From: an uncultured virus (IMG/VR IMGVR_UViG_3300041411_000304)
Taxonomy: Duplodnaviria > Heunggongvirae > Uroviricota > Caudoviricetes
DNA: 20,000 nucleotides
Reading direction: 5' to 3' (one strand)
Virus record (IMG/VR): IMGVR_UViG_3300041411_000304
Part shown: positions 3,878-20,000 of the stretch, piece after piece
Position numbering within the stretch: position 1 is the first letter of the stretch
Layout of the letters: every line of letters begins with the position of its first letter
Notes under the pieces: model-generated
Databases searched by the model: none
What the model was told of the DNA's origin: nothing
Seen by the model: only the letters and a program-made list of their open reading frames with translations
Translations under genes and position numbers: made by a program

Positions 3878-6295
3878 ATGGCACTCCTGACTCCTGATCT
3901 GATCCAAGCAACATTCGCATCTGGCGGCGAGAAAGACACGCCGCCGCAACTCTCCCCGCAAGGCTTCGTGAACTTCACCGAAGGATACACGCCATTCTAT
4001 GAGATGCGACTGGATGCCGGCCAGCCGCAAGCCAAGGCGGTTGAGCGGAAGGTCCAGAACTACATGTTCAACCAGGCCACCCTGCATGCCAAAGCTTGGC
4101 AATCGGCCTGCATTCCGCCGTGGTACGCCGGAATGCCCGGAGGCTACGCCAAGAATGCCATTGTCATCCACGAGATTGCCGGTGTGGCCACCCCGTTTCG
4201 TTCGTTGGTCGCCGGCAACGTTACCACTCCCGGCTCAGCTCCGACTCAGTGGGAATATGTTCAGACCGTCTCGGAGATGATTCAAAACATCCCGATGCCG
4301 TCTGGCGGCGCGACTACTGCTATGGCATCGGCAGGCATCATTGCCACCGGAGGGGCGGCATACGATCCTCTGACGCTCCCTCGCGGAACATACATGTACT
4401 CCAACAATGCCGCTGCCGCTGCCACGCCGAATTTGCCAAAGGACATTCACACCGCTGCACCATCGGCGCTCGCTGGCATTCTGGAGGTGTGCACAGCAAG
4501 CGCCGTCGCAGGCGTCAAAATACTTCGATACGTGGACATGCTTGGCAACGTATACATCCTGCCGAGCGGCTCAACAACTTGGGTGCAATACACCAACTAT
4601 GGAATCCTTCAGGCGCAGAAACCGACTTTTGCATTGACGGCATCGACCACTACCAACAACTATCTGGCCAACTTGACGCCAGCCCCTGCTGCCCTGACAG
4701 ATGGCATGGAAGTTCGACTGCGGATGCACGCAAGCAACACCGGCGCATCGACACTTAATTTGAATAACCTTGGTGCCAAGACAATTCTGGGGCAGGCCTT
4801 CCAGGCACTCTCCGGTTCCGAGATGCTGATTGGACGCAACGTGACTCTGCGTTGGACGCCGACGTCTGATGCCTGGGTCATCATCAATGCGACGTCTCGT
4901 CTCCAGGTTAACGATGCCATTGCCGATAACCATGTACCGAGCTGGAAGCAAGTCAAGGACTATGTCGCTACAGAAGTGGTCATCGACTGGGACGAAGTCC
5001 AGAACAAGCCGGACGTCGTCATCAACAAGAACGCGGCCACCTTGTCCACTCTTTTGTTGAACCGGAATCCTGGTGGCGCCAACCCGGCCATATCTTGGCG
5101 CAACACTGATGGCGGATTAACCAGGTTTTCCGAGTCTCTGATTGACGACAACACCATTCGTCTTGCAACACAAGCTGTGGTCCTGCGAGAGTACACGCAA
5201 ACCACAGTAGACTACAAGGCGATAACGTTTTTTCAACAAGGAATCCGCTGCACACAAACCACAAACGGCATGATCCGTTTCCTGGCAAGCGATGGACAGA
5301 CAGCCAGGTACTTGTTTACCAGCAACGACACCGCCATGTACTTCTATGGCTATGATGATGCTGCCGCTGCTCAATTGATATATACGGCAAACAGACACAC
5401 CCAAGTGATGGCGTTCTCCAAACGCCCGACCTTTGAAGGGGTCGTTCCTTGGGACGAGAACAACCTGGCCATGACTGGCGCTATCTCGGCGTTTAGCCAC
5501 AGCTCGCCAGGCGGCGGCTGGTTGTTCTGTGATGGTTCTGCAGTTTCGCGAACCACCTACGCGGCATTGTTTGCGAAGATTGGCACGACCTTTGGTGCCG
5601 GCAACGGATCAACAACGTTCAACGTGCCTGACCTGCGTGGCCAGTTCGTGCGAGGTGTAGATGCCGGCAGAGGGCTTGATCCGAGTCGCGTACTCGGCTC
5701 CTCGCAAAGTTTCGCGATGCAATCGCACAGCCACACGGCGACGGCCTCCAATGCTGGCACGCACGACCACACGGCGACGGCGCTTGCCGCTGGCAGCCAC
5801 ACCCATACTACAACGGTTTCCACGGACGGAATCCACACCCACACTGCAAGCACCGGCGATGCCGGCGCACACACCCACACCGTCTCCGGCACTTCCGGAA
5901 CAACTAACACTTCTCGGTTCTCTTCTGCCATCCAGCAAGGTGGTTCTGCGGCGAGCATCACCGTTCCTGCCAGCGGCCAGTCCACCACAGGCGTTATGTG
6001 CGACGGCCAGTCCGTATCTGGTCCTTTCGGTATCTACTTCACCAACACGCTGGAAGGTCACGCGCACTCCATAAGCGCCACTGCTGCTTCGAACGGCACC
6101 CACGACCACACTGTGTCCATTGCAAACAGCACCGGCCACACCCATACCGTCACCAACTCGACCATTGGCAACCACCAACACACGGTCGATGTAGACGTTG
6201 GCGGCGACCACGCCCACACCATCGTAGTCAATGCCAACGGCTCCACCGAGACGCGCCCGACCAACGTGGCCCTTCACTACTTCATCCACATCTAA
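3878..6295 (+). CDS. Tail fibre (receptor-binding protein) with tail-collar domain and HxH needle
   Basis: 805 aa. N-terminal baseplate anchor 'VNFTEGYTPFYE...VERKVQNYMFNQAT', collar 'GWLFCDGSAVSRTTYAALFAKIGTTFGAGNGSTTFNVPDLRGQFVRG', ten HxH motifs and C-terminal 'ETRPTNVALHYFI'. Confidence 0.92.
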   Translation: MALLTPDLIQATFASGGEKDTPPQLSPQGFVNFTEGYTPFYEMRLDAGQPQAKAVERKVQNYMFNQATLHAKAWQSACIPPWYAGMPGGYAKNAIVIHEIAGVATPFRSLVAGNVTTPGSAPTQWEYVQTVSEMIQNIPMPSGGATTAMASAGIIATGGAAYDPLTLPRGTYMYSNNAAAAATPNLPKDIHTAAPSALAGILEVCTASAVAGVKILRYVDMLGNVYILPSGSTTWVQYTNYGILQAQKPTFALTASTTTNNYLANLTPAPAALTDGMEVRLRMHASNTGASTLNLNNLGAKTILGQAFQALSGSEMLIGRNVTLRWTPTSDAWVIINATSRLQVNDAIADNHVPSWKQVKDYVATEVVIDWDEVQNKPDVVINKNAATLSTLLLNRNPGGANPAISWRNTDGGLTRFSESLIDDNTIRLATQAVVLREYTQTTVDYKAITFFQQGIRCTQTTNGMIRFLASDGQTARYLFTSNDTAMYFYGYDDAAAAQLIYTANRHTQVMAFSKRPTFEGVVPWDENNLAMTGAISAFSHSSPGGGWLFCDGSAVSRTTYAALFAKIGTTFGAGNGSTTFNVPDLRGQFVRGVDAGRGLDPSRVLGSSQSFAMQSHSHTATASNAGTHDHTATALAAGSHTHTTTVSTDGIHTHTASTGDAGAHTHTVSGTSGTTNTSRFSSAIQQGGSAASITVPASGQSTTGVMCDGQSVSGPFGIYFTNTLEGHAHSISATAASNGTHDHTVSIANSTGHTHTVTNSTIGNHQHTVDVDVGGDHAHTIVVNANGSTETRPTNVALHYFIHI

Positions 6296-6303
6296 GGTTG
6301 AAT

Positions 6304-6966
6304 ATGGCAAAGTTAACGCAAAACATCATAGTGGTCGGCTGTGGCGCTACGGCGCTGCTAGCCGGCAAGTGGCTGGAGCCCTTACAGGTTGCCTGCGATG
6401 AGTTCAAAATCGTTACGGCGAACCGCGTTGGGGCCTTCCTGGCCAACGTTGGGGTGGAGTCCGGCGGCCTGGTATCTCTGGTTGAATCGTTGTACTATAC
6501 CGACCCGGTGCGAGTGGCCAAGATTTTCCGGTCGTCTATGGATATCAACAACAACAAGGTCGTGGATGAGGCTGACATTGAGTTCGCCAAACAATACATC
6601 CGCAACAGCGAGAAGATGGCCAACCGGGTCTATGCGAACCGGATGGGCAACGGCAACGAGGCCAGCGGTGATGGGTTCCGCTATCGTGGGCGCGGCGCGA
6701 TGCAGACGACCGGTCGCGAGAACTACGCCAAAGCGGGAAAAGCCCTGGGCGTGGACCTCATTGGAAACCCGGACCTGCTGACGCGACCGGACGTCGCCGC
6801 CAGATCAGCTGCGTACTTCTTCCAGAGCAACGGCTGCAACGAGATGGCAGACGGCAACCAAATCTCCCGGATCGTCCAGACCATCAATGGTGCGCTGCCC
6901 AACGCCAACAACCACGGCCCGCTTCGTTTGGAGCGGTATCACAAAGTAAGGCAGATGCTTGCCTGA
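6304..6966 (+). CDS. Endolysin, glycoside hydrolase family 19 (chitinase-like muramidase)
   Basis: Motifs 'FLANVGVESGG', 'ANRVYANRMGNG', 'GDGFRYRGRGAMQTTGRENY' and 'ING'. ATG at 6304 follows AAGG; 220 aa. Confidence 0.92.
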   Translation: MAKLTQNIIVVGCGATALLAGKWLEPLQVACDEFKIVTANRVGAFLANVGVESGGLVSLVESLYYTDPVRVAKIFRSSMDINNNKVVDEADIEFAKQYIRNSEKMANRVYANRMGNGNEASGDGFRYRGRGAMQTTGRENYAKAGKALGVDLIGNPDLLTRPDVAARSAAYFFQSNGCNEMADGNQISRIVQTINGALPNANNHGPLRLERYHKVRQMLA

Positions 6967-9576: not shown

Positions 9577-10473
9577 TTAGAATCCTTCGGCCTCGGTGGC
9601 CTCACCAACGCCATCGCCACCGCTGCTGGCTGCATCGGCCTTGTTGTAGTCCACGTTGGCTTCGCCAGCGATGATGGTGCTGTAGAAAGCTTTCGCGGAT
9701 TCGTACATGCCCTTGTCCGATACCAGGCCTTCCAGTTCGAAGCCGGCGCCAGACCAAGTGCCCTGGTCATTGGACTGGGCGATGGTGGACAGGCGGACCA
9801 GGTTGGCGAAGGTCGGAGGAGTCTTCATGCCTTGCGGCGTCTGGACCTTCTTCTGGCTCAGCGAGGTCATCAACTTCTTGGAAGCCTTGATTTGGCTGGA
9901 GGCCAGGGAGAGGATGGCATTGCCAAACTCGCCGGTTTCCGGATCGATGACGATGACGAAGTGCTCGCGAGTGTCGGCATAGTAGTCGTTTTTCTTCTCG
10001 TTCACACTGCCATCTTCGTTCGGCACGAAGTAGCGGCGGTCAACTTCCTTGACCTTGGTGGGGTCTTGCACGATGGCGCGGAATTGCTCAACGGTGAGCA
10101 CGCCCTTGAAGCCCTTGTTTTCAGCCTCGCGACCGCCCCAGCGGATGAAGCTGCGGCGATAGGCACAGGGGATGATCAGGATGCCGGCTTTGCCATCGTA
10201 GAGACGACCGGTGACGGTGTTGTAGATCATGCCGGCCTTGGCGCCTTGAACGTACTTGGCACTGTCTTCGTCCACCAGCGGGGACATCTTCTGCAGAATC
10301 TGCAGGAAGGGAATGGCATACGACTCGGCATCAGCGCCTTCGAAGCCGGAGTGGCCGCCGAAGTCGCTCATGTCCATGAATTCAGCGACCGCGCCGCCCT
10401 GGGTGGCCAGAGCCACGTCCTTCACTTCTTCTTCTTTTCCCTTGGTCGCATCTTTCACATTGGTACCGGCCAT
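9577..10473 (-). CDS. Putative single-stranded DNA-binding/recombination protein (298 aa)
   Basis: Strong SD AAAGGAG before ATG at 10473. The motif 'IPFLQILQKMSP' and an acidic tail ending in Phe (EATEAEGF) are typical of phage SSBs. Confidence 0.7.
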   Translation of the reverse strand: MAGTNVKDATKGKEEEVKDVALATQGGAVAEFMDMSDFGGHSGFEGADAESYAIPFLQILQKMSPLVDEDSAKYVQGAKAGMIYNTVTGRLYDGKAGILIIPCAYRRSFIRWGGREAENKGFKGVLTVEQFRAIVQDPTKVKEVDRRYFVPNEDGSVNEKKNDYYADTREHFVIVIDPETGEFGNAILSLASSQIKASKKLMTSLSQKKVQTPQGMKTPPTFANLVRLSTIAQSNDQGTWSGAGFELEGLVSDKGMYESAKAFYSTIIAGEANVDYNKADAASSGGDGVGEATEAEGF

Positions 10474-10520
10474 GTTTGGCTCCTTTCTGGTTTGGTTTTC
10501 AGCGTTCAAGCTGTGGTAGT

Positions 10521-10549
10521 ATCGTATGGTTTTTGGTGCGGAAAAGCAA
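10521..10549 (-). promoter_or_regulatory. Sigma70-like promoter for the SSB-like gene
   Basis: TTGCTT (10549-10544), 17-nt spacer, TACGAT (10526-10521) in an AT-rich intergenic gap. Confidence 0.6.
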
Positions 10550-11158
10550 TCACTTTTTCTTGGCTTTGGGTGTCTTAATTTCTGCCTCGGTGAACTCGAA
10601 CACGTTGACCTGCTCAGGCAGCTGGGTGCCCTTCTCTTGCTGCTCCTTGCAGAAGCTTTGGAGGGTCTGGTAGTGGACACTTTGATTGAGGGACGGGAAG
10701 AAATCGGCTTGCTCAAGGATTTCGCGGGCCTTTTTGGCCTGCTCCATCTCGCCGCGCCCGAATTCGCACGCCACGTTGGTCTTGACGATGCCGTCATTTT
10801 CGGTTTCCTCCAGCCACTTGTAGAAGGCTTTGGCCTTCTCTTCCGGCACAGAATACTTGGCCTTCTTCTTGACGACCACTTTGCGACCATCGGTCAAAGT
10901 GGTTTCTTCCAGGCCGAGTTCCTTCATGATTTCCGGAATCAGCTCACGCTTGACCTTGGACAACTCTTCCTGCTTTTCCGCCAGCTCCTTCTCAAGCCGG
11001 GCGACGTCTGCGGCCAGGCCGTTGGCGGAGTTGACCTGGACCAGCAGGCGGGTGCCCGCAGGCAACTCTTCCACGTTGGCTTCCGGGAGGTCGGCCCAGT
11101 AGTCCAGCGGTGCCGATTCGTTCACGTGTTCGGGGATTTGGTCTTCAGGGGTGCTCAC
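10550..11158 (-). CDS. Conserved phage replication-module hypothetical protein (coiled-coil N-terminus)
   Basis: GTG at 11158 with SD GGAG overlaps the upstream TGA. 'ELIPEIMKELGLEETTLTDG...FYKWL...SVHYQTLQSF' resembles proteins usually found beside phage SSB genes. Confidence 0.7.
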   Translation of the reverse strand: MSTPEDQIPEHVNESAPLDYWADLPEANVEELPAGTRLLVQVNSANGLAADVARLEKELAEKQEELSKVKRELIPEIMKELGLEETTLTDGRKVVVKKKAKYSVPEEKAKAFYKWLEETENDGIVKTNVACEFGRGEMEQAKKAREILEQADFFPSLNQSVHYQTLQSFCKEQQEKGTQLPEQVNVFEFTEAEIKTPKAKKK

Positions 11159-11487
11159 AAAGAAATCTCCACTTCGATGTAGTCCTTCAGGATGCGATCC
11201 CACTTCAACATCTTGATGGAGTCGAAACGACGCAACAAGATGGCCGAGCAGGCCGCGATGATTGCCGGGTCGCCCACGGCCATGAGAAAGTCGCCAGTTT
11301 CAAAGTCGACCAGTTCGGCCTTGGCCTTGCTGATGACCGGCGCCATTAGTGCCGTCTCTTCATCCGAATCGATGACGGATCGAAGCGCGCCAAATCGCGC
11401 GGCCTTGGTGAAGTCCAGCTGCGGCCTCAGCTTGCCGCTGGACATGTCACGACGTTTTGTAAGATGGGGGATATACACGCGACTCAT
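11155..11487 (-). CDS. Hypothetical protein (110 aa)
   Basis: Strong SD AAAAGGAG before ATG at 11487, with a promoter-like site immediately upstream. Confidence 0.75.
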   Translation of the reverse strand: MSRVYIPHLTKRRDMSSGKLRPQLDFTKAARFGALRSVIDSDEETALMAPVISKAKAELVDFETGDFLMAVGDPAIIAACSAILLRRFDSIKMLKWDRILKDYIEVEISL

Positions 11488-11512
11488 TGGTGAATCTCCT
11501 TTTGCTGGGAGG

Positions 11513-11541
11513 ATTATGCCGGACTCAGAGGAGTCCGGCAA
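11513..11541 (-). promoter_or_regulatory. Sigma70-like promoter overlapped by a perfect 10-bp palindrome (candidate operator)
   Basis: TTGCCG (11541-11536), 17-nt spacer, CATAAT (11518-11513). TGCCGGACTC-AGAG-GAGTCCGGCA spans 11517-11540. Confidence 0.7.
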
Positions 11542-13529: not shown

Positions 13530-13756
13530 TGGGCCACCCCTTCTTCGCCAACGGCGAAGTCCAGCAAGCCAGTCTTGAAGTCCAACGGAACAAGAGCGCG
13601 AGCCTCATGACAGGCATAGTACATGGTGAATGCCATTTTATCATCCAGGACTGCGATTTGCGTGTACCCTGCCCATCCGCTGGCGCGACCATCACCTGCC
13701 ACCAGACGGAACCGGAACCCGTTGGCCTTTCCATTGTCTTGTGTTTCGACCTTCAT
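13526..13756 (-). CDS. Hypothetical protein (76 aa)
   Basis: 4-nt start/stop overlaps with both neighbours, filling the gap exactly. Confidence 0.65.
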   Translation of the reverse strand: MKVETQDNGKANGFRFRLVAGDGRASGWAGYTQIAVLDDKMAFTMYYACHEARALVPLDFKTGLLDFAVGEEGVAQ

Positions 13757-16700
13757 TGCTCTTCGCCCTCTTCTGCCAGCTTCATGAGCCTGTCTTCGTG
13801 CGCGGCCAGCTCTGCCTGGGTATATATGCGCTTGATGTTCTTAACGATGAACATGTCGATGTCGCTGATCTTCCAGCCTTTCACCAGGAACCAAGAGCCC
13901 ATGGTGGCGCCCTCTGCGATGGGCTTTCCGAGGGCCACGAACTTGTCCGGGCGGATGCGGAATCGCATGGGCGAGTCAGTGGAGTCGTCCACCATCATCA
14001 GGTCAAGGAACTGGGTCAGGCCTTCCTTGCGCTTTCCGCCACGTTTCTTGATCCTGATGGCCTCGTTTTCGTCGGCCAGAACCTTCTTCGTGAGCTTGCC
14101 GATGATCAGGCCATCGTCCCGGTCCTTGACGTCCTTCATGCCAATGATCGGGTTGCCGGAGACGACGCCTGCCAGGCGCGGGTCGGCGTAGTAGTGGCCG
14201 AACTTGGTGTGAGCCTCTGCCAAGTCGGCAAACTGGACCTCGGCACTGGCCAGCGCGGCTGCGGCCTTGTTCCAGTCGTTCACCAGCTTGATGTGCTCGC
14301 CGCCCATCTCCTTGTACTGGGCCTTGGAGTCCTTGAGGCGCCGTTTGACGTCCGCCAGATCGGCCTTCAGAATCTTCGCCAGCTCCTTGTCCGCCAGCTC
14401 TTTGGCGACCTCAAGACGTCCGGACAACTCGTCCACTTCGTCTTGCAAGTCCTCCAGCGTCTCCGGGGTGATCGGCAACGACGCCAGGAACGCGATGGAC
14501 TCCTTGACGCTGTCGCGCAGCTGGATGAACTTCTCGGCCTTGGACGGGCCGAAGCCCTTGGCGTTCATGATGCCGCCGATCAGACGTCCATCTGCCACGA
14601 CCCAGTTAAGGCCTGAGTGCTCAGGATCGATTGGCGTATAGTTCACGCCCTCCTTGGCCAGCTCGCGAAGGATGGCGATGGTCTGCTCATCGTCCTTGGC
14701 CGACCGTAGGCAGGCCGCAGCGAATTCCAGCTTGTGGTAGCACTTCAGCCAGCAGGTCCAATAGGTCACCACGGCATAGCTCACCGAGTGTGATTTGTTG
14801 AAGCCCCAGGAGCCGAATGTCACCATCTCGTTCCAGATTTTCTTGGCCTGGTCTTCCGGCACGCCCTGGGACATCGCTCCGGTCACGAAGTCGGCGCCCA
14901 TCTGGTTGAAATACTCCTCGCCCTTCCGGCCTGACATGGCCTTCCGGACGGCAGAGGTTTTGACCCAGTCAAACAGGCCGATTTCCTTCACCACGGACAT
15001 GATCTGTTCTTGGTAGAGGAACACGCCATATGTGTCTTTGAGATACTTCTCAAGGTGCGGCACATCATACGTGACGGCCTCGCGACCGTTGGAGCGTTCG
15101 ATGTACTTCTGCGCCATACCGGAGGCCAACGGACCCGGACGCGCCAGTGCCGTCAAGTTGTCGATCTTGGAGAATCGATCAACGTCCACCGAACGGGTAA
15201 CAGAGCGCACGGCATCGCCTTCAAACTGGAAGATGCCACTGACCTTGTCCTGGTTGATGATTTCGAACACCGCCGGGTCGTCCAGCTTCAAGCCATAAAG
15301 CTCTTCCGCGTTGGTGACACCGGCATCCTCGATGATGCCCAGAGTCCGCAGTCCGAGGGCGTCAATCTTCAGCAGGTCCAAATATTCGGAGTCCGGCTTG
15401 TCGATCTGTCCGACGCCATCGGCGTTGACCGTACAGAAATCAGAAATCGGCTCGTTACAAACCAGGATGCCTGCGGCGTGAACGCCAGTGTGGCTTGGGT
15501 GGATTTCCAGGTCGCCCATGCAGGCCGAAGCCTCTGGATAGTTGGCACGGAACTCCTTGCCAGGTTCCGTGCCGGCAAAGGTATCCTCCAGGCCCTTGCC
15601 ATAACGGGCGTCACCGGATGAATACTCGATGAGCGAGTTGCGGATTTGCTGCGCCTCTTGCTCTGGGATGTTGAACTTCTTGCGTACCTGCTGGATGACC
15701 GATGCCGCTTTGAGCGTGTTGATGTTACCCAGCTTGGCGACGTTCTGTGCGCCATACTTGTTCTGCAGATACTCGAATACCATCCAACGCTTGGTGTCGT
15801 TGAAGTCGATATCGATGTCAGGCAAGTCGGCGCGGCTGATATCGATGAAGCGCTGGAATAGCAGGTCATGCGGGATCGGGTCCACCTCGGTGATGCCGAG
15901 GACGTAACAGACCAGCGAGCCGGCAGCGGAGCCGCGAGCCGGGCCGACCAGCATGTGCTGCTTGGCGTAGGATACCAGGTCCGCCACCACCAGGAAGTAG
16001 CTGTCAAACTTCTTCAACTGGATTTGGTGAATTTCTTCGTTGAACCGGTCCTCATAAACCTGCGTCCACTCTTGGATGTGGCCGCGCGCCAGACGAGATG
16101 CTTGGCCTTCGCGCGCCAGGGCGATGAGGTCGCCATCCAGGTGGATCAGCGGGGCCTTCTGGAGCTTGATGCCGGCCAGCTGCTCTTCGATCAGGAAAGT
16201 GTTCTCCACTGCCTTGTCGAAATCGGCCTTGCCCATGACGTGGCGCAAATGGCCATAGAGCGCATCGACGCCCTCGATGGTACGGCAGCCCACCGAGTCA
16301 CGGACTTCCCACGCATACGCAAAATTAGAGTGCTTGCTGTGGGGCATATCGTTGTAGCTGGTAATGACCATCGGCTTGCCATGACGTTTGGCGTAGCAGA
16401 TGGACGAAGAGGCGTGAAGGAAAGAGGCCGGATTCACATCGACATAGTCATAGGCTTCCGGCTTCAAGCGCTGGAGGGCGCCGCCAGGGAAGCGGATGAC
16501 GCCCTCAAGAGCGGACATTGAGTCGCTGGAAAGCCCACCGCCCTGCACGCTAGCGGTCGTGGCCCGGTACAGGGACCGTGTATCCTTCCCCAGCATCCAG
16601 GCGCGCGGCGAGAACTTGGCCAACGGGGCGTCCTCTTCGACCTTGACCGGGAATTCCATGCCGAAGAGTGGCTGAATCTCGTGCTTGGCGGCTTCCTTCT

Positions 16701-16851
16701 CCCAACGAACGTGCCCCCAGGTGCCCATATCCACGATGGCAGCGGACTTGGCGCCCAACTCCTTCAACCTTTCAAACACCTCCGGCATACGTCCATAGAC
16801 GTCGCGATAGGTGTAACCGGTCCTAACGCGCAGCTGCGGAAAATGCATCAT
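13753..16851 (-). CDS. dnaE: DNA polymerase III alpha subunit-like (family C) polymerase
   Basis: GPARGSAAGSLVCYVLGIT, PDIDIDF, HAAGI, LLKIDALGL, YQEQIM, FNKSHSVSY and the HhH 'KGFGPSKA'; 1032 aa. Confidence 0.96.
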   Translation of the reverse strand: MMHFPQLRVRTGYTYRDVYGRMPEVFERLKELGAKSAAIVDMGTWGHVRWEKEAAKHEIQPLFGMEFPVKVEEDAPLAKFSPRAWMLGKDTRSLYRATTASVQGGGLSSDSMSALEGVIRFPGGALQRLKPEAYDYVDVNPASFLHASSSICYAKRHGKPMVITSYNDMPHSKHSNFAYAWEVRDSVGCRTIEGVDALYGHLRHVMGKADFDKAVENTFLIEEQLAGIKLQKAPLIHLDGDLIALAREGQASRLARGHIQEWTQVYEDRFNEEIHQIQLKKFDSYFLVVADLVSYAKQHMLVGPARGSAAGSLVCYVLGITEVDPIPHDLLFQRFIDISRADLPDIDIDFNDTKRWMVFEYLQNKYGAQNVAKLGNINTLKAASVIQQVRKKFNIPEQEAQQIRNSLIEYSSGDARYGKGLEDTFAGTEPGKEFRANYPEASACMGDLEIHPSHTGVHAAGILVCNEPISDFCTVNADGVGQIDKPDSEYLDLLKIDALGLRTLGIIEDAGVTNAEELYGLKLDDPAVFEIINQDKVSGIFQFEGDAVRSVTRSVDVDRFSKIDNLTALARPGPLASGMAQKYIERSNGREAVTYDVPHLEKYLKDTYGVFLYQEQIMSVVKEIGLFDWVKTSAVRKAMSGRKGEEYFNQMGADFVTGAMSQGVPEDQAKKIWNEMVTFGSWGFNKSHSVSYAVVTYWTCWLKCYHKLEFAAACLRSAKDDEQTIAILRELAKEGVNYTPIDPEHSGLNWVVADGRLIGGIMNAKGFGPSKAEKFIQLRDSVKESIAFLASLPITPETLEDLQDEVDELSGRLEVAKELADKELAKILKADLADVKRRLKDSKAQYKEMGGEHIKLVNDWNKAAAALASAEVQFADLAEAHTKFGHYYADPRLAGVVSGNPIIGMKDVKDRDDGLIIGKLTKKVLADENEAIRIKKRGGKRKEGLTQFLDLMMVDDSTDSPMRFRIRPDKFVALGKPIAEGATMGSWFLVKGWKISDIDMFIVKNIKRIYTQAELAAHEDRLMKLAEEGEEQ

Positions 16852-17374
16852 ACACCCCTGTTTCCTGACAAAGTTGATGGAGCTTCCGGACGTCGTCCAA
16901 TGCTCGGTGCTTCTGGACGAATTCGCCGCAGTACATTTGATAGAGGTCTTCCAACTTCATCCGGCGTCCGAACATAGGGAAGAACTGCTCAACGGTACAG
17001 CAGAGTATCTGCGGGAAGAAGATGTCAGCCAGAAACTGGTCTATGCGCTGGAGGTCATAGCGGAGCAACGACTGGTCGAAAGACAGGTTGTGAGCGATGG
17101 CGACGTCAGCGCGCTTGAAGAAGTCGGCCACGGTCGGCACGAACTCGGAGAACGGTGGCTTGTCTGCCAAGTCCTCATTCTTCAGGCCAGTGATCTTGGT
17201 GATGATTTCTTCGATGATGACGCCAGGATTGCAGATGAACTCAACTTCATCAATAATCGTATCGCCATCAGTGAGGATGCCGGCAAATTCGATGATTCGC
17301 GGCTGCTTGCGAAGGGGCGCCTGTGGATGCTGGGTGAGCCCTGTCGTTTCCGTATCGAATGGGGCGAATATCAT
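16823..17374 (-). CDS. dnaQ: DEDDh 3'-5' exonuclease, Pol III epsilon-like
   Basis: ExoI FDTETTGL, ExoII AHNLSFD and ExoIII HRALDD. It overlaps the polymerase start. Confidence 0.92.
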   Translation of the reverse strand: MIFAPFDTETTGLTQHPQAPLRKQPRIIEFAGILTDGDTIIDEVEFICNPGVIIEEIITKITGLKNEDLADKPPFSEFVPTVADFFKRADVAIAHNLSFDQSLLRYDLQRIDQFLADIFFPQILCCTVEQFFPMFGRRMKLEDLYQMYCGEFVQKHRALDDVRKLHQLCQETGVYDAFSAAAR

Positions 17375-17391: not shown

Positions 17392-17416
17392 AGAAAGACG
17401 GCCCGGAGGCCGTCTT
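17392..17416 (-). terminator. Hairpin/probable terminator between the VOC gene and the exonuclease
   Basis: 9-bp stem AAGACGGCC (17395-17403) / GGCCGTCTT (17408-17416), UCCG loop on the - strand, short U-rich tail. Confidence 0.6.
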
Positions 17417-17431: not shown

Positions 17432-17971
17432 TTACACTGCTTCGTGCGAGGTCGGCGTGTACTCCTTGCGAACGATGAACTTCAGATCAACGCCCAGAAC
17501 TTTCTGGGTGTCGAAGATGGTGTAGTGGTAGCGGCGCGAATCCTTGATGGCAGGATTTTCATGCATCTCGGTGTAGACTTCCTGGGCGATAGCGAAGCCT
17601 TTGGCCTTGAAGTATTCCTTGAACTGCTCCAGCTCTTCAGCGGTGCAGTGCATGCCCAGATGGCTGACGACGCTGCCAAAGTTGTCGTTGTTCTGGCGGC
17701 TGTCAACCCAGTTCGGGCCGCTGGTGTAGTCCAGCACTTCGAACTCCAGCGGCTTGCCTACCGGGTCATTGCCATTGCCGGCTTGGTAGTTGAAGTTCAA
17801 ATTGGCGATGTTGACGCCTTCCTCACCGAACACTTCGCCACGTGCCATCACGCGGTCGCTGATCCACTCGGACAGGCCGAGGTCCGAAAGGATTTCCATG
17901 GCCAGCTTCGGGTTGTTCGGAGCGATGGCGACTTGTTCGATGCGGAACTTTGGGACGACTACTTGGTTCAC
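17432..17971 (-). CDS. VOC (glyoxalase/methylmalonyl-CoA epimerase-like) family enzyme, 179 aa
   Basis: GTG at 17971 with SD AAGGAG. The pattern 'RIEQVAIA...LEFEVLDY..GPNW...SHLGMHC...YTIFDT...LGVDLKFI' fits the paired beta-alpha-beta-beta-beta VOC fold. Confidence 0.72.
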   Translation of the reverse strand: MNQVVVPKFRIEQVAIAPNNPKLAMEILSDLGLSEWISDRVMARGEVFGEEGVNIANLNFNYQAGNGNDPVGKPLEFEVLDYTSGPNWVDSRQNNDNFGSVVSHLGMHCTAEELEQFKEYFKAKGFAIAQEVYTEMHENPAIKDSRRYHYTIFDTQKVLGVDLKFIVRKEYTPTSHEAV

Positions 17972-18002
17972 TGGTGAAACTCCTTGAAGTTGAGCGGGTA
18001 TT

Positions 18003-18203
18003 TTAGAGGTTGCTGGGATCAAAAGGAACGTTCACGCGGAAATCGCTGCGAACAGTCTTGCCTTGGATTTCCGCGCGCATCACCTGGCCGGTAGCCTCGA
18101 TGCGATGGTGTGCCTTCTCCACGGTCGCTTGGAGTTCTTGGCCATCATCAGTTACCACGGTGACTTGGGCGATCTCACCGACCATCTCAATGATCACTTT
18201 CAC
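18003..18203 (-). CDS. Hypothetical protein (66 aa)
   Basis: GTG start 3 nt after the SDR stop; fills the gap between the SDR and VOC genes. Confidence 0.55.
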   Translation of the reverse strand: MKVIIEMVGEIAQVTVVTDDGQELQATVEKAHHRIEATGQVMRAEIQGKTVRSDFRVNVPFDPSNL

Positions 18204-18206
18204 GGC

Positions 18207-18887
18207 TTACTTCCCGAAAGGCACATCGGTGCCGGACATGTATTTCCATGCGCCCGAATCAAGCAGACCGGCGATGAACTCGGCCAGGGTTTCGGGCGGC
18301 GATTCCAGACCGTGCATAAGCGCTTTCTTCTGGTATTCTGCGGCATATTCCGGAGTCCAGCCGCGAACTTTGCACACGTTGTCCTCGATTTGCTTGGACA
18401 TGCCGGTGCCCTTGAGCTTGTTCGGGGACACCGAGAAGACGGTGATACCGTGCTTGGGCGTCAGCTCGTGCGCCATCTGCTTGGTTATCATCAGGCCGGC
18501 TGCCTTGGAGGCGTTGTAGGCCAGCGAGCTGGTCATGGGGATGTGTGCAGCGTTGGAGACGATGTTGATGACGAAGCCTTTGGACTTGATCAGCTCTTCC
18601 AGACACCACTGCGTCATGTTGACGAAGCTGTAGGCGTTGACCTCCATAACGCGACGGAAAGCACCCAAGGTCACTTCCTCAAACCACTGGTTGAGGTTGA
18701 TACCGGCGCAGTTGATGAGACCGTCCAACCCTTCGATCTTGGCGGCCAAGTCGTCGCTATAGCTTGGGCGGCGAACATCATCGCCATACTCCTGGTCGAA
18801 TTCGACAACTTCATGGCCGTTCTGGCGCAGAACGAAAGCCAGAGCAGCACCCAGACCGGATGCGGAACCGGTGACGAGAATTTTCAT
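18207..18887 (-). CDS. Short-chain dehydrogenase/reductase (classical SDR), 226 aa
   Basis: Rossmann TGSASGLG, INCAG, catalytic Ser in 'IVSNAAH', YNASK (YxxxK) and 'VSP'. ATG at 18887 has SD AAGGA. Confidence 0.92.
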   Translation of the reverse strand: MKILVTGSASGLGAALAFVLRQNGHEVVEFDQEYGDDVRRPSYSDDLAAKIEGLDGLINCAGINLNQWFEEVTLGAFRRVMEVNAYSFVNMTQWCLEELIKSKGFVINIVSNAAHIPMTSSLAYNASKAAGLMITKQMAHELTPKHGITVFSVSPNKLKGTGMSKQIEDNVCKVRGWTPEYAAEYQKKALMHGLESPPETLAEFIAGLLDSGAWKYMSGTDVPFGK

Positions 18888-18900
18888 GAATTGCTTCCTT

Positions 18901-18924
18901 GAAGAAGGGCCGGCTAACCGGCCC
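18901..18924 (-). terminator. GC-rich hairpin (weak terminator or RNA-stabilising stem) before the SDR
   Basis: GGGCCGG (18907-18913) / CCGGCCC (18918-18924), 4-nt loop, followed by UUCUUC on the - strand. Confidence 0.5.
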
Positions 18925-18930
18925 GGATGA

Positions 18931-19998
18931 TCAGTTGATGGTGATGGTGTGGTCGTGACCAAGGGCGCCCAGCATGGCCAGATATACGGTCATGTCTTCC
19001 ATCGAGTCGACGTGGCGAAGGTCGCCCTTGACGAAGCGGGTGAGCTTGACCATGGCCAGCTCAAACAGGTGCCAGTAGTGGAAGTCTTGCGGGCCGTTCA
19101 ACGTCACGCCGTTGGGGAAGAGCACGGCCATCAACTGGCCGACCAGCACCGCATTGTCCTTGTAGACGGCATTGCGCTCGCGGAAGAGGTCGGCCTGGCC
19201 CTGGAGAATATCGGCGGCGGTGATGTCCTGGAAAGCGGCCTCCAAAACCTCTTCCGATTCGCCGTCCCAGGCCTTTGCTTCTGCGACCAGGTCAAATTCA
19301 TCCGATATAGGGATGTGCAGGACAGGCGCGCCACCAAGGGCAATCGCTTCGTCCAGGCTCAGCGGCACGTCCTCATGGCGCACGACTTCCACCAGGCCAC
19401 CGTCAGCAGCTTGGATGTGCTCATCCACGGTCTTGGCGAGGGTGCCGTCACGAAGGCAACTGGAGCCGGGCGCCTGGCCAGCGCGGGCCAATTCCTCGGC
19501 CTCTTCGTCGGAGATGGGCGAGTGGTCGGCGGCGAACTGATCCAGCGGGTCTTGCGGCGCGTTGGCCGGCTCCTGGCCAGCATCCGCGAGCAGAGGGGCC
19601 TGGCAGCCGGTCGCATCCAGAACGAAGGCAGCAATGCCAAGTGCCAGATAGGCCTGGATGACGTCGTTGCGATCATCGAAGGCTGCTGCGATGCCGGTGC
19701 CATTCTTCGCGGCCATCTCCAGCAGACGGGTGGCGATTTCGGTCTTCAGTTCGGGCGAACTGCGCATGTCATCGTCCGGGCGCATGTACAGCAGATAGTC
19801 GCGAACTGGATTCATGCCAAGGACTTGCCGCAGCCAGGCCTTGGTCTGGATGGCCCACTTCTTCGGGCGAGCGGTAACGAAGACCGGCAGGAGGTTCTGG
19901 GTGCGCGCGTCAGCCAGATACTTCAGAAAGACCGGATTGGCCGAGTCGCGGTGCAGTTGGCCGTGGTATTCGTCATAGACCGAGTGTCTGACTCCGCC
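18931..19998 (-). CDS. HAD phosphatase (T4 PNK 3'-phosphatase-like) fused to a C-terminal DUF6378/Nmad-like helical domain; 5'-truncated
   Basis: The frame is open from the window edge; hand translation gives '...VFVTARPKKWAIQTKAWL...LYMRPDDDMRSSPELK...AAFDDRNDVI', i.e. HAD motifs II-IV. C-terminal domain: 'AADILQGQADLFRERNAVYKDN...MVKLTRF...HVDSMEDMTVYLAML'. Confidence 0.78.
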   Translation of the reverse strand, partial: GGVRHSVYDEYHGQLHRDSANPVFLKYLADARTQNLLPVFVTARPKKWAIQTKAWLRQVLGMNPVRDYLLYMRPDDDMRSSPELKTEIATRLLEMAAKNGTGIAAAFDDRNDVIQAYLALGIAAFVLDATGCQAPLLADAGQEPANAPQDPLDQFAADHSPISDEEAEELARAGQAPGSSCLRDGTLAKTVDEHIQAADGGLVEVVRHEDVPLSLDEAIALGGAPVLHIPISDEFDLVAEAKAWDGESEEVLEAAFQDITAADILQGQADLFRERNAVYKDNAVLVGQLMAVLFPNGVTLNGPQDFHYWHLFELAMVKLTRFVKGDLRHVDSMEDMTVYLAMLGALGHDHTITIN

Positions 19999-20000
19999 AT

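Follow-up and report, generated by a model that had tools for sequence, protein, structure and literature searches.

Why would a phage carry a dehydrogenase and a putative epimerase next to the genes of its DNA polymerase? The question is raised by a 20,000-nucleotide stretch of DNA of an uncultured virus (IMG/VR record IMGVR_UViG_3300041411_000304), in the following called the window, that encodes a short-chain dehydrogenase/reductase (SDR) and a VOC-fold protein between the gene of a HAD phosphatase fusion and dnaQ. A preliminary description of this DNA regarded these genes as a candidate cassette for DNA or nucleotide modification. We find that SDR and VOC protein are a phage-restricted, co-inherited enzyme pair, and that their genes form an accessory cassette with a hairpin on either side, located between the gene of the HAD/DUF6378-like phosphatase and dnaQ in an operon for nucleotide metabolism and replication. 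Our tentative explanation for the pair is NAD-dependent oxidoreduction and epimerisation of the sugar or polyol moiety of a thymidine hypermodification.

The enzyme pair

The window covers part of the genome of an uncultured myovirus from the rhizosphere; its gene order is collinear to that of Pbunavirus, and Wifcevirus and Myosmarvirus are further relatives. Genes for baseplate, tail fibres and endolysin are on the plus strand, and a long minus-strand operon extends from the window end down to the DNA ligase gene. The cassette genes are at the 5' end of this operon as transcribed and are followed by dnaQ and dnaE. The four co-oriented, tightly packed genes upstream of dnaQ and dnaE that had been described before are indeed there, all on the minus strand: the gaps between HAD fusion, SDR, a 66-aa open reading frame (ORF), VOC and dnaQ are 43, 3, 31 and 57 nucleotides, respectively (Table 1). 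The strong Shine-Dalgarno sequences were also found, AAGGAAG 7 nucleotides upstream of the SDR start and AAGGAG upstream of the VOC gene.

Judged from its motifs, the SDR is a bona fide classical short-chain dehydrogenase/reductase. It scores 113.5 bits with Pfam adh_short (gathering score 26.6 bits, E 1.1e-32) and has the motifs TGSASGLG (TGxxxGxG, residues 6-13) and YNASK (YxxxK, residues 124-128); the catalytic residues N84, S111, Y124 and K128 are invariant in an alignment of 18 rows, in agreement with the intact TGxxxGxG, Ser and YxxxK of the preliminary description. R175-G176-W177 and Y185 are specific to this SDR family, lie in the substrate region and are invariant in the same 18 rows. 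Strand beta2 ends in an acidic residue in all 18 of them (16 Asp, 2 Glu). In classical SDRs, an acidic residue at this position goes with NAD(H), and use of NAD(H) is therefore predicted.

The nearest SDR relatives with solved structures are butanediol, diacetyl, acetoin and carbonyl reductases (PDB, E 7e-13 to 1e-10). With FabG and with acetoin and butanediol dehydrogenases the protein has TGxxxGxG and the catalytic Asn-Ser-Tyr-Lys in common, but it is only 226 residues long, with about 24 residues absent after beta2, has its own invariant RGW and Tyr185 and stays far under every NCBIfam cut-off: no model reaches its cut-off among the best 25 of 214 matches. FabG, the database label of the relatives, was rejected, as the best FabG model of NCBIfam gives 84.1 bits with a cut-off of 222. 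A function as FolM/pteridine-reductase-type partner of a thymidylate synthase was dropped too, because the synthase of the relatives is ThyX (Pfam Thy1, E 2.5e-28), an enzyme that yields no dihydrofolate; no pterin reductase is prominent among the SDR matches in PDB or NCBIfam.

Confirmation of the VOC fold comes only from structure prediction: the predicted structure has the paired beta-alpha-beta-beta-beta modules forming a cup by which the superfamily is recognised. The label given to the protein in the preliminary description thus holds for the predicted structure and not for sequence models: no Pfam glyoxalase family matches the window protein, the only Pfam match at E <= 0.01 is a weak one to DUF7862, and precomputed PF13669 annotations are present on 7 of 120 homologues listed (of 316). 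The nearest folds are methylmalonyl-CoA epimerase and glyoxalase I, at 10-17% identity and with no Pfam or PDB sequence match. The VOC ligand tetrad of such enzymes is His/Glu(Gln)/His/Glu on strands 1, 4, 5 and 8; by a strand-pattern reading of the alignment and the model strands, the phage protein would have Gln13, Glu78 (and Glu76), His104 and Lys164 at these positions. The pocket is polar, dense and strongly conserved or invariant, and non-canonical. Unlike methylmalonyl-CoA epimerase and glyoxalase I, the family is confined to phages: it has 316 homologues (longest contig among 120 listed about 81 kb), and in 185,579 species genomes the only matches were two tiny contigs.

Linkage and distribution of the cassette

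All 22 IMG/VR loci have the order helical domain (the C-terminal domain of the HAD fusion), SDR, VOC, where the SDR gene precedes the VOC gene on the same strand and itself directly follows the helical domain; the loci include near-duplicates and represent about 13 distinct lineages. DnaQ follows the VOC protein in 21 of them (the remaining contig ends), a ThyX-like gene is upstream in 18 (the four other contigs end first) and a gp63-like protein is encoded upstream in every contig that is long enough. An insertion of 0.9-1.7 kb separates SDR and VOC in three loci. The order RecD-gp64-gp63-ThyX-HAD/helical-SDR-VOC-DnaQ-DnaE is present in four of four long metagenome loci (of 15 fetched) and is the same in the phages Kyle, TropicalSun and Hera.

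By tblastn, the VOC protein was detected in 55 of 50,697 phage records: its bearers are Wifcevirus-type Escherichia/Shigella phages, phages of Serratia, Xanthomonas, Pantoea, Erwinia, Xylella, Aeromonas and Luteibacter, and four Microbacterium phages. The SDR was found at adjoining coordinates in the same genera. In Microbacterium phage TinyMiny, SDR (gp57), VOC protein (gp58, hidden Markov model (HMM) E 1.2e-28) and a protein with the helical domain (gp59, E 5.9e-27) are encoded side by side, though arranged differently from the loci above, and the gene order before DnaE is flavoprotein, NT5C-like HAD, SDR, VOC and the protein ending in the helical domain. A glycosyltransferase gene is located just downstream of the split DnaE genes of this phage (locus L025, 12032-13108). 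Gordonia and Mycobacterium phages have an orthologous SDR, with the RGW motif, before DnaE. The preliminary description had named a lack of conserved linkage in related phages as a ground for rejecting its idea; in every relative examined, SDR and VOC are strictly tied to each other and to nucleotide-metabolism genes, and the idea survives this check.

The pre-DnaE block of Gordonia phage Ranch (L026) and Mycobacterium phage Mopey (L027) consists of a flavoprotein-like oxidoreductase, an NT5C-like HAD, a methyltransferase, a 155-161-aa protein and the orthologous SDR, with MazG and ThyX-like genes following DnaE. The proteins of 155-161 aa encoded before the SDR were considered as VOC relatives and rejected (probability of 0.3% in a profile comparison).

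A thymidylate-synthase-like gene, which had been suspected beyond position 20,000, was found in the relatives and is a divergent ThyX. In 12 of 12 rows of an alignment (A8; L031:8139-8990, L001:7026-7856, L029:19032-19949 and nine others, actinophage ones among them), these ThyX-like proteins have R-(T/S/Q)-R at the position of the signature R-H-R of T. maritima ThyX, and the other dUMP-site arginines align. The TropicalSun copy is under the NCBIfam thyX cut-off (72.7 bits vs 87.9). The gp63-like protein of about 300 aa is encoded upstream of ThyX in all relatives, including Pbunavirus 14-1 (ORF65) (alignment A5, with rows such as L001:5723-6661, L028:15829-16791 and L030:23284-24285). It has an N-terminal GxGxxG and a C-terminal GRFATWRN motif and is annotated as 'oxidoreductase' or 'galactopyranose' in the relatives; in PDB only the GxGxxG dinucleotide-binding end of this flavoprotein finds matches, to amine oxidases (E 0.45), and its HMM has no match in three actinophage loci at E < 10.

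A possible role in thymidine hypermodification

DNA modification has been measured in relatives of the source phage. In the Pbunaviruses F8 and 14-1, about one quarter of T is replaced, in TG context; the modified thymidine has 362 Da in F8, read as 'erythrose/threose sugar alcohol derivative', and 390 Da in 14-1, read as 'circularized aldopentose derivative' (PMC12191111). F8 DNA withstands five enzymes with TG-containing sites and is cut by EcoRI, and the available part of the report assigns no genes to the modification (PMC12191111). Native Nanopore assembly failed for several Pbunavirus genomes (10.64898/2026.07.08.737226). The F8 and 14-1 operon is collinear with the window (helicase, flavoprotein-like ORF65, ThyX-like protein, HAD/DUF6378-like fusion, DnaQ, DnaE, helicases, MazG and ligase), but unlike in the cassette bearers the HAD/helical fusion is directly followed by DnaQ, and SDR and VOC genes are absent. 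The modification was thus measured in phages that lack the cassette. A sugar or sugar-alcohol thymidine is chemistry that would suit an SDR and an epimerase; F8 and 14-1 are modified without either, and the pair is therefore not the core of that pathway and at most an accessory tailoring step. The idea of base modification holds in so far as the lineage modifies its DNA; no observation links SDR and VOC themselves to DNA. The polyol base that had been named as chemical precedent, 5-(4',5'-dihydroxypentyl)uracil of Bacillus phage SP-15, has a polyol side chain at the thymine position (available text of PMC5977210), and the sugar-alcohol and pentose thymidines of F8 and 14-1 come close to it (PMC12191111). 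SP-15 itself is an unrelated phage, and the tally of the VOC search names no Bacillus phage.

Cultured bearers of the cassette include MyoSmar, Kyle and Xanthomonas phage XcP1 as well as the Wifceviruses Bas98-101. With 30-38 EcoRI and 6-14 EcoRV sites per genome (BASEL table), these Wifceviruses are insensitive to all tested defences, restriction systems included, except EcoP1_I, according to the accessible part of the report (PMC11990801). A tailoring role is, tentatively, the best single explanation because the lineage sugar-modifies thymidine, the branch with the cassette resists restriction more broadly and a pair of SDR and VOC enzymes could reshape a sugar or polyol. For the substrates, the order of the steps and any link to DNA, we infer the following: the SDR would oxidise or reduce a hydroxyl or carbonyl of a C4-C5 sugar unit with NAD(H), and this unit may be a free or phosphorylated sugar, or may be bound to a nucleotide or already to DNA; next, the VOC protein would epimerise or isomerise the neighbouring carbon via an enolate, like methylmalonyl-CoA epimerase; and the HAD domain would strip phosphate from a precursor or dNMP.

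A more specific version, which we consider possible but doubtful, is that SDR and VOC are new tailoring enzymes for the TG-limited sugar-alcohol thymidine of the Pbunavirus type: they would convert this nucleoside or its donor, so that the resulting sugar-thymidine is of another kind or more extensive. In this case, the VOC protein would be an epimerase that is metal-poor and bears a Lys, its substrate would be a sugar linked to a nucleotide or to DNA, and such chemistry would be new to DNA modification; the flavoprotein, the ThyX-like protein (R-T-R for R-H-R), HAD and MazG of the DnaE phages would constitute the core pathway. The gp63-like flavoprotein is a candidate core enzyme of the modification in this lineage. 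If true, such a conversion of the sugar-alcohol thymidine would explain why cassette-bearing Wifceviruses withstand EcoRI, EcoRV and type I systems while EcoRI cuts F8.

The known routes to hypermodified thymidine start from 5-hydroxymethyl-dU and employ a ThyA-like hydroxymethylase, a DNA kinase and transferases of the aGPT-Pplase type. The thymidylate synthase of the relatives is ThyX-type, in contrast to the ThyA-like dUMP hydroxymethylase of this route. As far as described in the available parts of two reports, the known pathways are phage-encoded multi-enzyme clusters near replication genes and protect DNA from nucleases (PMC5889632, PMC8989533). In the literature searched, neither SDR nor VOC enzymes belong to these pathways, and no paper connects hypermodification in phages with either of them, with DUF6378 or with ThyX-like proteins.

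Several observations speak against a function of the pair in thymidine hypermodification. F8 and 14-1 modify thymidine without SDR or VOC, the solved structures nearest to the SDR are those of generic carbonyl, acetoin and butanediol reductases, and among the 23 ORFs of the window Pfam and PHROGs identify no known thymidine-hypermodification enzyme. VOC is not detectable in the Gordonia and Mycobacterium phages that have the SDR near DnaE. All bearers have one common DnaE replication module, and the conserved gene order may therefore largely reflect vertical inheritance. The restriction resistance of Wifceviruses could stem from an inhibitor protein instead, and term searches of the papers on FoX6/7, MATE2, KKP 3709 and WFC/WFH gave no restriction or modification data.

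Some of these points would fit an auxiliary metabolic or detoxifying module, an explanation that we nevertheless regard as rather unlikely. Such a module would act on a small alpha-hydroxy-carbonyl or acyl metabolite or on the nucleotide/deoxyribose pool and aid fast replication, and would never touch DNA bases. The butanediol, diacetyl, acetoin and carbonyl reductases closest to the SDR and the epimerase and glyoxalase folds closest to the VOC protein are consistent with it, as are the PHROGs category of the SDR ('moron, auxiliary metabolic gene') and the presence of ThyX, MazG and HAD, ordinary nucleotide-supply genes, in the same operon. However, the VOC family has no cellular members, Gln13 and Lys164, which the strand-pattern reading places at two of the four metal-ligand positions, would be unusual in a standard enzyme of the glyoxalase or epimerase type, and the fixed place between phosphatase gene and dnaQ across phyla argues for a role linked to replication or nucleotides.

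We give little credence to a counter-defence device that chemically disables or captures an immune signal or cofactor of the host, such as a messenger derived from NAD or nucleotides: PADLOC models match none of the four cassette proteins, the genes are located in an early replication operon and not in an anti-defence island, and we know of no anti-defence family with the SDR/VOC/HAD-type folds of the cassette. What such a device would account for is that the cassette is accessory relative to Pbunavirus and hairpin-bounded like a moron, and that cassette-bearing Wifceviruses are also insensitive to every tested non-restriction defence covered by the available part of the report (PMC11990801).

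Equally improbable is a non-canonical dNTP, made before replication and incorporated genome-wide for a normal base by the private DnaE/DnaQ, a version of the idea put forward in the preliminary description and one for which we found no specific support. In its favour, the cassette is directly upstream of dnaQ and dnaE, MazG pyrophosphatase and the HAD nucleotidase-like enzyme could remove the competing canonical nucleotide, and the resistance of Wifceviruses to EcoRI and EcoRV exceeds the TG-limited protection of F8, but the cassette has no kinase or nucleotidyltransferase, metagenomic short-read assembly of the source phage was unproblematic, and Pbunavirus, as far as reported, modifies only T in TG context and about one quarter of T, which points to post-replication modification in this lineage.

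Further features of the window

The HAD domain and the C-terminal helical domain are joined by an acidic, Ala/Pro-rich linker, and the relatives of the fusion have 251-472 aa. The HAD part matches Pfam HAD_PNKP with 27.6 bits, exactly at the cut-off, and phrog_4889 with E 1.5e-58. Motifs II (Thr), III (Lys) and IV (DD) are present, with T42, K85 and D109/D112 invariant and D108 nearly so (alignment A6); motif I (DxD) is beyond the window end, and the relatives carry DxDG(C/N), nearly invariant in the same alignment. These HAD motifs are common to the phosphatase of T4 polynucleotide kinase and NT5C, and the actinophage counterparts match NT5C; unlike T4 polynucleotide kinase, the fusion has no kinase domain and is joined to the helical domain. 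In PDB, sequence searches with the HAD fusion and with the VOC protein returned nothing meaningful.

Eight residues of the helical domain are invariant (R29, Y33, H64, K72, R75, D85, S86 and D89), and its AlphaFold2 (AF2) model has three long helices (pLDDT 86). The window copy scores 13.3 bits with DUF6378 (PF19905; cut-off 27.1, E 0.1), and DUF6378 matches, all sub-threshold, are found in 15 of 16 family members at E <= 10 (best E 1.5e-5). In BFVD, the domain matches DUF6378 proteins (E 0.05-1.1) and a 'Nucleotide modification associated domain 1' protein (E 0.13); fold searches in PDB were uninformative. By sequence, the domain is a remote relative of DUF6378 that carries this label below threshold, and the HAD-DUF6378 fusion of the preliminary description can be kept for its HAD part, at the Pfam cut-off, with the second half of the name sub-threshold.

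Table 1. Position of the cassette genes, the polymerase genes and the flanking hairpins in the window
Feature	Position	Strand	Details
HAD phosphatase (PNKP/NT5C-like) with C-terminal DUF6378-like helical domain	18931..20000, beyond window end	-	stop at 18931; 355-aa fragment
C-terminal helical domain, about 105 aa	18931..19260	-	alignments A2 and A3; separate gene in many relatives
GC-rich hairpin GGGCCGG-UUAG-CCGGCCC, then UUCUUC	18907..18924	-	between HAD fusion and SDR gene
Short classical SDR, 226 aa, predicted NAD(H) use	18207..18887	-	ATG at 18887, stop at 18207; adh_short
66-aa ORF, variable small protein	18003..18203	-	GTG at 18203; phrog_5379 E 6.6e-4
Predicted VOC-fold protein, 179 aa, methylmalonyl-CoA-epimerase-like	17432..17971	-	GTG at 17971; two beta-alpha-beta-beta-beta modules
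9-bp hairpin AAGACGGCC-UCCG-GGCCGUCUU, then UCUGU	17395..17416	-	between VOC gene and dnaQ
DnaQ-like 3'-5' exonuclease	16823..17374	-	Pfam RNase_T E 7.6e-26; downstream neighbour of VOC gene
DnaE-type DNA polymerase III alpha	13753..16851	-	Pfam DNA_pol3_alpha E 5.7e-63; phrog_405 E 6.7e-263

GC-rich hairpins with U-rich tracts are present on both sides of the block from SDR to VOC. The one upstream of the SDR gene has a minimum free energy of -16.4 kcal/mol (z -2.1; 6 of 200 shuffles fold at least as well), the one downstream of the VOC gene -20 kcal/mol (z -3.4; none of 200 shuffles folds as well). A scan for consensus terminators listed neither hairpin.

The 66-aa ORF had been counted among the cassette genes, and this had to be corrected: most relatives, namely L033, L037 and most IMG/VR loci, lack it between SDR and VOC, and a resembling ORF is present in TropicalSun, Hera and L031. 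It has 35% identity over 48 aa to ORF058 of Pbunavirus F8 (E 7.6e-4, small database), and this weakly similar ORF (L029:18839-19030) is flanked by ThyX and the HAD fusion. Within the operon, the small gene has changed its place between lineages.

The source phage is known from rhizosphere metagenome contigs alone: the window sequence is present in eight runs from eight studies, all of them contigs and no raw reads, at shares of 1.00 to 0.06. The G+C content of the window is 55-63%. The closest cultured relative is Pantoea phage Kyle, by identity of both the SDR (71%) and the VOC protein (55%). On the minus strand, three proteins encoded at 9577-11541 match the Pfam families Pam3 gp32-, gp33- and gp34-like (E 3.9e-26, 1.1e-32 and 9.2e-89, respectively). 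The mechanically called ORFs 9577-10890 and 10550-11203 overlap by about 340 nucleotides; the Pam3 gp34-like match begins at residue 164, so that the true gene start is probably downstream of the listed one. Likewise, the endolysin ORF on the plus strand (5998-6966; Glyco_hydro_19, phrog_181) in its listed form shares about 300 nucleotides with the tail-fibre gene (3878-6295), and its family matches start near residue 98-190, indicating that this gene probably starts later.

Implications

Pbunaviruses belong to the Pseudomonas phages most used in therapy, and their new thymidine hypermodification is still without assigned genes. Their relatives of E. coli, Serratia, Xanthomonas and soil have two extra enzymes, encoded exactly at the junction of nucleotide metabolism and polymerase in the operon. 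If the two do act in thymidine hypermodification, they would provide a genetic handle on the pathway, an explanation for the restriction resistance of Wifceviruses and a new pair of DNA-modification enzymes. If they do not, SDR and VOC are still a clean phage-only enzyme pair, and one that is amenable to work in E. coli K-12 with the existing BASEL isolates.

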